Assembly (NCBI RefSeq): GCF_003334765.1
Contig: NZ_QOWT01000089.1
Strand: one strand, 5' to 3'
DNA length: 1,029 nucleotides
Source of the DNA: Escherichia coli
GTDB taxonomy: Bacteria > Pseudomonadota > Gammaproteobacteria > Enterobacterales > Enterobacteriaceae
Part shown: one piece after another, positions 779-817 of the stretch
Numbering within the stretch: the first letter of the stretch is position 1
How the letters are laid out: every line of letters begins with the position of its first letter
Notes under the pieces: generated by a model
What the model was told of the DNA's origin: nothing
Database searches by the model: none
The model's input: the letters and a program-made list of their open reading frames with translations, nothing else
Program-made: the position numbers and the translations under genes

Positions 779-812
779 GTAAGCGTCAACGGAGCACCGT
801 ATTGACGCTTAT
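779..812 (-). repeat. Putative terminal inverted repeat (right end) of an IS66-family element, beginning GTAAGCG on the + strand and containing an internal hairpin
   Basis: GTAAGCGTCAACGG at 779-792 lies about 30 bp beyond the stop (809-811) of the IS66-like transposase ORF on the - strand. IS66-family ends typically start 5'-GTAAGCG (from memory). 780-792 pairs with 797-811. Confidence 0.45.
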
Positions 813-817
813 TTATT
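780..817 (+). terminator. Intrinsic-terminator-like hairpin plus T-tract, oriented for + strand transcripts (antisense to the IS66 transposase)
   Basis: 5' arm 780-792 (taagcgtcaacgg), loop 793-796 (agca), 3' arm 797-811 (ccgtattgacgctta) with a 2-nt bulge at 800-801, giving 13 bp of stem. It is followed immediately by tttatt at 812-817. On the - strand the hairpin is not followed by a U-tract. Confidence 0.3.

Follow-up and report, generated by a model that had tools for sequence, protein, structure and literature searches.

The stretch of E. coli DNA analysed here (1,029 nucleotides, henceforth the window) is 100% identical to positions 4919188-4920216 of the E. coli 042 chromosome (NC_017626.1), and the same island recurs with 100% identity in O104:H4 and other strains, the O104:H4 matches ending at 997. 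The locus is a patchwork of insertion sequence (IS) remnants that adjoins the pic gene and comprises the following features, where IRL and IRR denote left and right inverted repeats.

1-74: end of an ISEc45 (IS110-family) transposase gene
about 75-650: IS3-family remnant carrying an in-frame internal stop (474-476), 5'-truncated by ISEc45
651-721, minus strand: remnant of an ISEc23-like IS66 IRL, tip at 721, minus strand reading GTAAGCGTAAACCGACTGCCGTATGTAGCC...
722-737, minus strand: 16-nt tip of another IS66-type IRR, minus strand reading GTAAGCGTTAACGGAG, tip at 737
738-778: 41-bp non-IS spacer between two facing IS66 tips (direct sequence reading)
779 onwards, minus strand: ISEc43, IS66 family (RefSeq annotation)
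779-806, plus strand: ISEc43 IRR, outer tip at 779, with tip box GTAAGCGT (779-786), a variable spacer and inner box CCGTATTGAC (797-806)
780-811, both strands: hairpin palindrome, a perfect 10-nt inverted repeat (repeat search) with arms 780-789 and 802-811 and 12 nt between them
809-997, minus strand: 3' fragment of ISEc43 tnpC (DDE transposase), a CDS of the last 62 codons plus the stop at 809-811 (RefSeq)
812-817, plus strand: TTTATT tract, directly 3' of the hairpin

The IRL remnant at 651-721 is similar to the IRLs of the elements at our loci L003 and L004 and is cut at about 650 by the IS3-family element; plasmid matches (H1-H3) stop exactly at 721 and IS3 matches at 650-653. The adjoining 722-737 matches the initial 16 nt of L004/L021-type IRRs exactly. 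A sub-threshold Rfam match to the small RNA AfaR (681-721; 27.8 bits against a gathering score of 100, E = 0.013) coincides with the IS66 left-end remnant, and the AfaR model may contain IS66-derived sequence. Further downstream, tnpC of ISEc43 is interrupted in 042 at 997/998 by a second ISEc45, so that in this strain the window is bracketed by two ISEc45 copies. It is uninterrupted in O104:H4, where the intact ISEc43 (L002, 6779-9319) measures 2541 bp and is annotated in RefSeq with tnpA, tnpB and tnpC. This island copy has no target duplication (TAATAGTC at window 771-778 versus CCATAGAG at L002 9320-9327), and the difference between its two 8-bp flanks points to a probable rearrangement through recombination between IS copies.

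The right inverted repeat of ISEc43

The match to the intact ISEc43 of O104:H4 begins at 779, which makes this position the outer tip of the IRR. The tip sequence, GTAAGCG at 779-785, is the same in all related right and left ends that we examined. IRR (GTAAGCGTCAACGGAGCACCGTATT) and IRL (GTAAGCGTAAAGCCAATGCCGTCTG, from the intact L002 copy) match in 17 of 25 positions and have GTAAGCGT and CCGT in common. A 2541-bp copy of ISEc43 in E. coli MB06101 (L250) is flanked on both sides by the 8-bp duplication AAGCGACA, and ISEc23 (L003), whose right tip is identical to that of ISEc43, by the 8-bp duplication GCTCAAAA. The tnpC stop codon (809-811) occupies IRR positions 31-33, the translation ends in ...VVLTNK*, and close homologues of the last 183 TnpC residues have recorded hits to PF03050 and PF13817. 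The locus thus has what characterizes an IS66-family right end: the tip, imperfect IRL and IRR, 8-bp duplications around complete copies, and a tnpA-tnpB-tnpC set with a DDE_Tnp_IS66 domain. The window is moreover 100% identical to ISEc43 copies and, judged by sequence, the feature is the right end of a catalogued, already known E. coli element, ISEc43 of the IS66 family. The initial annotation, which had placed a hairpin inside a putative IS66 terminal repeat and in overlap with the transposase stop codon, was correct on both counts: the repeat is the IRR at 779-806, and the stop is that of the RefSeq CDS at 809-997 on the minus strand.

With other IS66-family ends the window shares the tip, imperfect repeats of about 25 bp, and a stop codon within or next to the IRR. 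What sets the ISEc43/ISEc23 sub-lineage apart is that here IRR and stop make up a near-perfect palindrome, whereas ISKox1, ISEc8, ISEc22 and ISKpn24 have none. Within this sub-lineage, the last 215 bp of ISEc23 (L003, 3001-3215) and ISEc43 (779-997) are about 97% identical at the nucleotide level, while the last 183 TnpC residues agree in only about 84% of amino acids, and from this disparity right ends appear to have been swapped between lineages, giving mosaic elements. In some ISEc43/ISEc23 right ends, namely those of L098, four further IMG/VR loci and L153, other sequence (ATCAGCGTCAACGG..., TCAGGCGTCAACGG...) stands in place of the initial 4-5 nt of the tip, and these ends are presumably truncated by another insertion or a deletion.

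The hairpin and its likeness to a terminator

Positions 779-817 read GTAAGCGTCAACGGAGCACCGTATTGACGCTTATTTATT. Inside the two 10-nt arms, pairs 790-792/797-799 close the loop AGCA (793-796) and leave a bulge at 800-801; in an alternative register the hairpin extends over 779-812 with the bulge at 801-802. When 775-822 is folded as RNA, 14 pairs form, 779-788 with 803-812 (closing with a G-U pair) and 789-792 with 797-800. Of the 13-bp stem, tetraloop and TTTATT tract proposed initially, hairpin, loop and tract are thus borne out, but the stem is not continuous and consists of 10 bp, a 2-nt bulge and a further 3-4 bp. The minimum free energy (MFE) of the plus strand is -17.9 kcal/mol, well beyond the limit of about -8 kcal/mol short of which the initial annotation would have considered the structure too weak, and compares with a shuffle mean of -8.5 (sd 2.3, z = -4.09), none of 200 shuffles being as stable. 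The minus strand folds with comparable stability (-17.0 kcal/mol, z = -4.86). As only about 0.02 perfect 10-bp inverted repeats (spacer 3-20 nt) are expected per 1 kb by our own estimate, the repeat is not a matter of chance.

One reading that builds on the initial proposal takes the structure for an evolved intrinsic (Rho-independent) terminator in the ISEc43/ISEc23 IRR that would stop antisense read-in and so shield transposase expression from transcriptional interference. On the plus strand, a stable, G+C-containing stem-loop is indeed followed directly by UUUAUU, as in intrinsic terminators; the minus strand lacks a T tract after the hairpin, so the polarity fits; and the hairpin is invariant among ISEc43/ISEc23 copies. 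Unlike typical intrinsic terminators, however, its stem is bulged, the three pairs at the stem base next to the U tract are all A-U, and the tail (UUUAUUAG), with 5 U among its first 6 nt, is interrupted at the fourth position. From these traits we would expect a structurally mediocre terminator. A simple consensus terminator scan of the window returned 0 sites, the hairpin going unflagged because the rule forbids bulges and takes loops of 3-8 nt only. An Rfam scan at a permissive E-value placed no family at 780-817, its matches elsewhere being the AfaR fragment and a spurious miRNA hit.

Local context counts further against termination at this locus. In the predicted fold of plus-strand RNA 690-830 (-43.7 kcal/mol), 779-794 pairs with 722-737, and the local hairpin appears in neither the MFE nor the centroid structure. 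The partner, a 16-nt arm that is 94% complementary to 779-794 as an inverted repeat, is transcribed before the hairpin, and the 5' arm of the hairpin is accordingly predicted to be sequestered here by the inverted IS66 tip upstream. Because this tip is predicted to displace the local hairpin, the proposal that read-through from the IS3 remnant is blocked at this site loses further ground.

Nor do the known cases of insulated IS ends offer a close precedent. The idea behind IS10 and IS50 agrees with that proposed for ISEc43, an RNA structure close to an IS end neutralising transcripts from outside, but in these elements the protection lies at the transposase-proximal end and acts on sense transcripts. 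According to work from the Kleckner and Reznikoff laboratories in the 1980s, the structures reportedly occlude the ribosome-binding site and do not terminate. The ISEc43 hairpin, in contrast, occupies the distal end, where the transcripts it would meet are antisense, while the proximal end (IRL) is unstructured: IRLs fold weakly (-1.4 to -6.7 kcal/mol), and no hairpin is present at the left end, through which read-in transcripts would run in the sense direction of the transposase genes.

Survey of related right ends

Selected structures can be told quickly from by-products by setting the ends of related elements side by side. Right ends of relatives, taken from plasmids and from one genome per species, gave 52 distinct 40-mers, sampled down to about 50% TnpC identity and coming almost entirely from Enterobacterales plus a few Aeromonas (Agrobacterium, Pseudomonas and rhizobia lie outside this sample). 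Ends were picked by a sequence pattern, which inflates the conservation of both boxes and leaves the variable positions of the pairing test unaffected. All 52 have GTAAGCG(T) at IRR positions 1-8 and CCGTATTGA(C) at 19-28, which is partly imposed by the selection pattern. The structure proposed in the initial annotation, by comparison, is paired in 59.8% of cells against 59.8 +/- 0.1% in 500 column shuffles, and among the 52 ends there are 0 pairs with both sides altered, hence no compensatory change. Pairs that would be diagnostic of a real stem are mostly unformed: 5-30 forms in 8, 12-21 in 10 and 13-20 likewise in 10 of the 52 ends. Folding of the first 34 nt gave the following MFE values, which weaken rapidly with distance from ISEc43.

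ISEc43/ISEc23-like tips: -17.3 kcal/mol
L021: -15.3 kcal/mol
L005: -12.1 kcal/mol
L029: -11.3 kcal/mol
ISKox1-type: about -7.6 kcal/mol (different fold)
L004: -7.5 kcal/mol
ISEc8, ISEc22 and ISKpn24: -5.6 to -5.9 kcal/mol

Among the 52 ends, the full hairpin occurs only in the ISEc43/ISEc23-like ones. The initial annotation had itself named absence from related IS66 ends as evidence against its proposal, and outside the ISEc43/ISEc23 lineage the full hairpin is indeed absent from the ends surveyed. Stem and U tract are not kept together in relatives either: the Pantoea element L029 retains 9 of 10 outer-stem pairs and continues with TTATGCAGATG in place of the T tract, while ISKox1-type ends retain TTATTTATCGG and have lost the stem, so that the two parts are uncoupled and evolve independently. 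With pairing at shuffle expectation and no covariation, an evolved insulator finds no support in the relatives. Taken with the bulged stem, the missing left-end hairpin and the competing upstream tip, this makes a selected terminator improbable to our minds, its chance being of the order of one in ten. Among the 62 ISEc43/ISEc23 right ends in IMG/VR we counted 11 variants, which is too little variation for a test of compensation.

The relatives also speak to transposition. An element with a weak hairpin (L004, -7.5 kcal/mol) carries perfect 8-bp duplications (AACCCATG), as do ISEc8 (L012, TGTTATCA) and a Serratia element (L009, GCACATTT), both of which lack the hairpin. The hairpin is thus dispensable for transposition in relatives and, as neither they nor the left ends have it, it is general neither to IS66 ends nor to both ends of one element.

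The two ends of IS66 elements differ markedly at IRR positions 23-30. Here (window 801-808) the right ends of the 52 relatives conserve ATTGACGG, while left ends have CTG... (CCGTATTGAC versus CCGTCTG). Since ATTGACGG is non-coding in the ISEc8 clade, it represents a cis-acting constraint. The conserved TTGACG was also considered as a promoter -35 element and rejected, since no acceptable -10 lies 16-18 nt away on either side and the promoter scan was negative.

Origin of the palindrome and competing readings

The explanation we favour, at a probability of roughly 70%, sees the hairpin at the ISEc43 IRR as a by-product. According to this scheme, 779-811 would serve as a double-stranded DNA site at which the DDE transposase TnpC recognises and cleaves the right end of ISEc43, TnpC probably binding the IRR as duplex DNA, and the palindrome would be a lineage-specific consequence of three adjacent, independently constrained pieces. 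The first is the family-wide tip GTAAGCGT; the second is the inner box CCGTATTGAC, specific to the IRR, in which TTGAC is the complement of GTCAA (IRR 7-11); and the third is the tnpC stop TAA (IRR 31-33), complementary to the TAA of the tip. The composition of the arms is as follows: the 5' arm is the universal tip plus three variable bases, and the 3' arm joins the conserved TTGAC to five further bases (29-33), of which the last three are the tnpC stop in the ISEc43/ISKox1 clade (a placement based on the CDS end at locus position 3031). This wider clade already has 7-8 of the 10 outer pairs, and two or three more substitutions (C at IRR 9, GC at 29-30) perfect the stem in ISEc43/ISEc23. The TTTATT tract, in turn, is coding sequence, namely the reverse complement of AAT AAA, the final Asn-Lys codons of TnpC just before the stop. 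A seemingly convincing terminator in an IS end can thus be accounted for in full by a transposase-binding repeat that overlaps with a stop codon and two codons.

What speaks against a by-product is the strength of the perfected hairpin (z of about -4) and its near-invariance in the 62 IMG/VR right ends of ISEc43/ISEc23. The latter would fit purifying selection in this lineage, but says little because those copies are very similar overall. Judging from its predicted energy of -17.9 kcal/mol and the UUUAUU behind it, the stem-loop may well terminate some transcripts in vivo, and any such plus-strand termination is, by our reading, probably incidental and partial. Term-seq data exist for E. coli K-12, which is not known to carry any IS66-family element. 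If the hairpin does terminate, ISEc43/ISEc23 insertions would be polar on neighbouring genes in one orientation and, as these elements are common on virulence and resistance plasmids of E. coli and Klebsiella, this would matter for how the effects of insertions are read. Otherwise the feature has little importance beyond annotation.

About as improbable as the terminator is a scenario where the palindrome acts as DNA, either because its internal copy TTGACGCTTA provides a second, inverted TnpC subsite or because an extruded hairpin or cruciform is recognised. This could draw on the fact that GTAAGCGTnAA is found four times in the window (711-721, 727-737 and 802-812 in one orientation, 779-789 in the other), that conservation of the inner box ATTGACGG is confined to right ends, which implies functionally asymmetric ends, and that three independent nested IS66 tips break hairpin-type IRRs after position 16, hence in the loop. 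Yet in relatives the right-arm positions that would supply the second subsite (IRR 29-33) show the lowest conservation, with pair 5-30 forming in just 8 of 52, relatives without the palindrome carry perfect target duplications, and nested tips in hairpin-less IRRs likewise break at 15-18 nt. TnpC, too, argues against hairpin recognition as it is a DDE-type transposase (PF03050), while ends recognised as hairpins are a hallmark of the HUH-type elements IS200/IS605 and IS91. Their subterminal hairpins are conserved at the ends and are recognised by HUH transposases as single-stranded DNA. ISEc43 is like them in having an imperfect palindrome at or near an element end, but it encodes the DDE enzyme TnpC with no HUH/Y1 transposase, has the hairpin at one end only and no conserved subterminal hairpins, and its relatives lack the structure. 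The suggestion in the initial annotation that the hairpin might be a transposase recognition structure survives, then, insofar as the sequence is the end that the transposase recognises; nothing points to recognition in hairpin form, and the left end has no such structure.

Slighter still are the odds we give to a combined option, in which the perfected ISEc43/ISEc23 palindrome would be an adaptive add-on whose RNA terminates antisense read-in and whose DNA loop offers a preferred entry for other IS66 elements; the latter part draws on the three nested tips (722-737, L192, L194) that break hairpin-type IRRs after position 16. Least probable is a minus-strand hairpin that forms the 3'-terminal stem-loop of tnpC mRNA and shields read-out transcripts from 3' exonucleases, for although the minus-strand RNA is equally stable (-17.0 kcal/mol, z = -4.86) and the stem starts exactly at the UAA stop, the structure is not conserved in relatives, is followed by no T tract on that strand and, with the flanking DNA of each insertion lying downstream, the element does not define the 3' end. 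In literature on IS66 ends, TnpC, IS679 and terminators in IS ends we found no description of IRR structure or TnpC binding.

The analysis also turned up duplicated IS66 tips: in unrelated contexts, a GTAAGCG... fragment directly abuts a complete IS66 end, the two tips lying in the same orientation 15-18 nt apart. About 100 chance matches are expected in such a tip-pair search, and only those with clear IS66 features were counted; a search of complete E. coli genomes for a nested ISEc8/ISEc43 junction was negative. In the window, the 16-nt IRR-type tip at 722-737 abuts the ISEc23-like IRL (698-721), and a variant of this locus in IMG/VR (L253, minus strand, about 8154-8200) has the 16-nt unit twice. 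A duplicated tip is also present in Serratia symbiotica (L082, minus strand, 2627-2670), and putative cases come from the metagenome contigs L192, L194, L181/L199/L210, L202, L178 and L214, the hairpin-type IRR being broken after position 16 in L192 and L194. The metagenome cases are independent and involve ISEc22, ISEc43 and unrelated IS66 members, with the outer fragment sometimes identical to the inner tip. Two origins are suggested by this arrangement: either elements inserted into the inverted-repeat spacer of IS66 copies already resident there, perhaps with later recombination, or the tip was duplicated in tandem.
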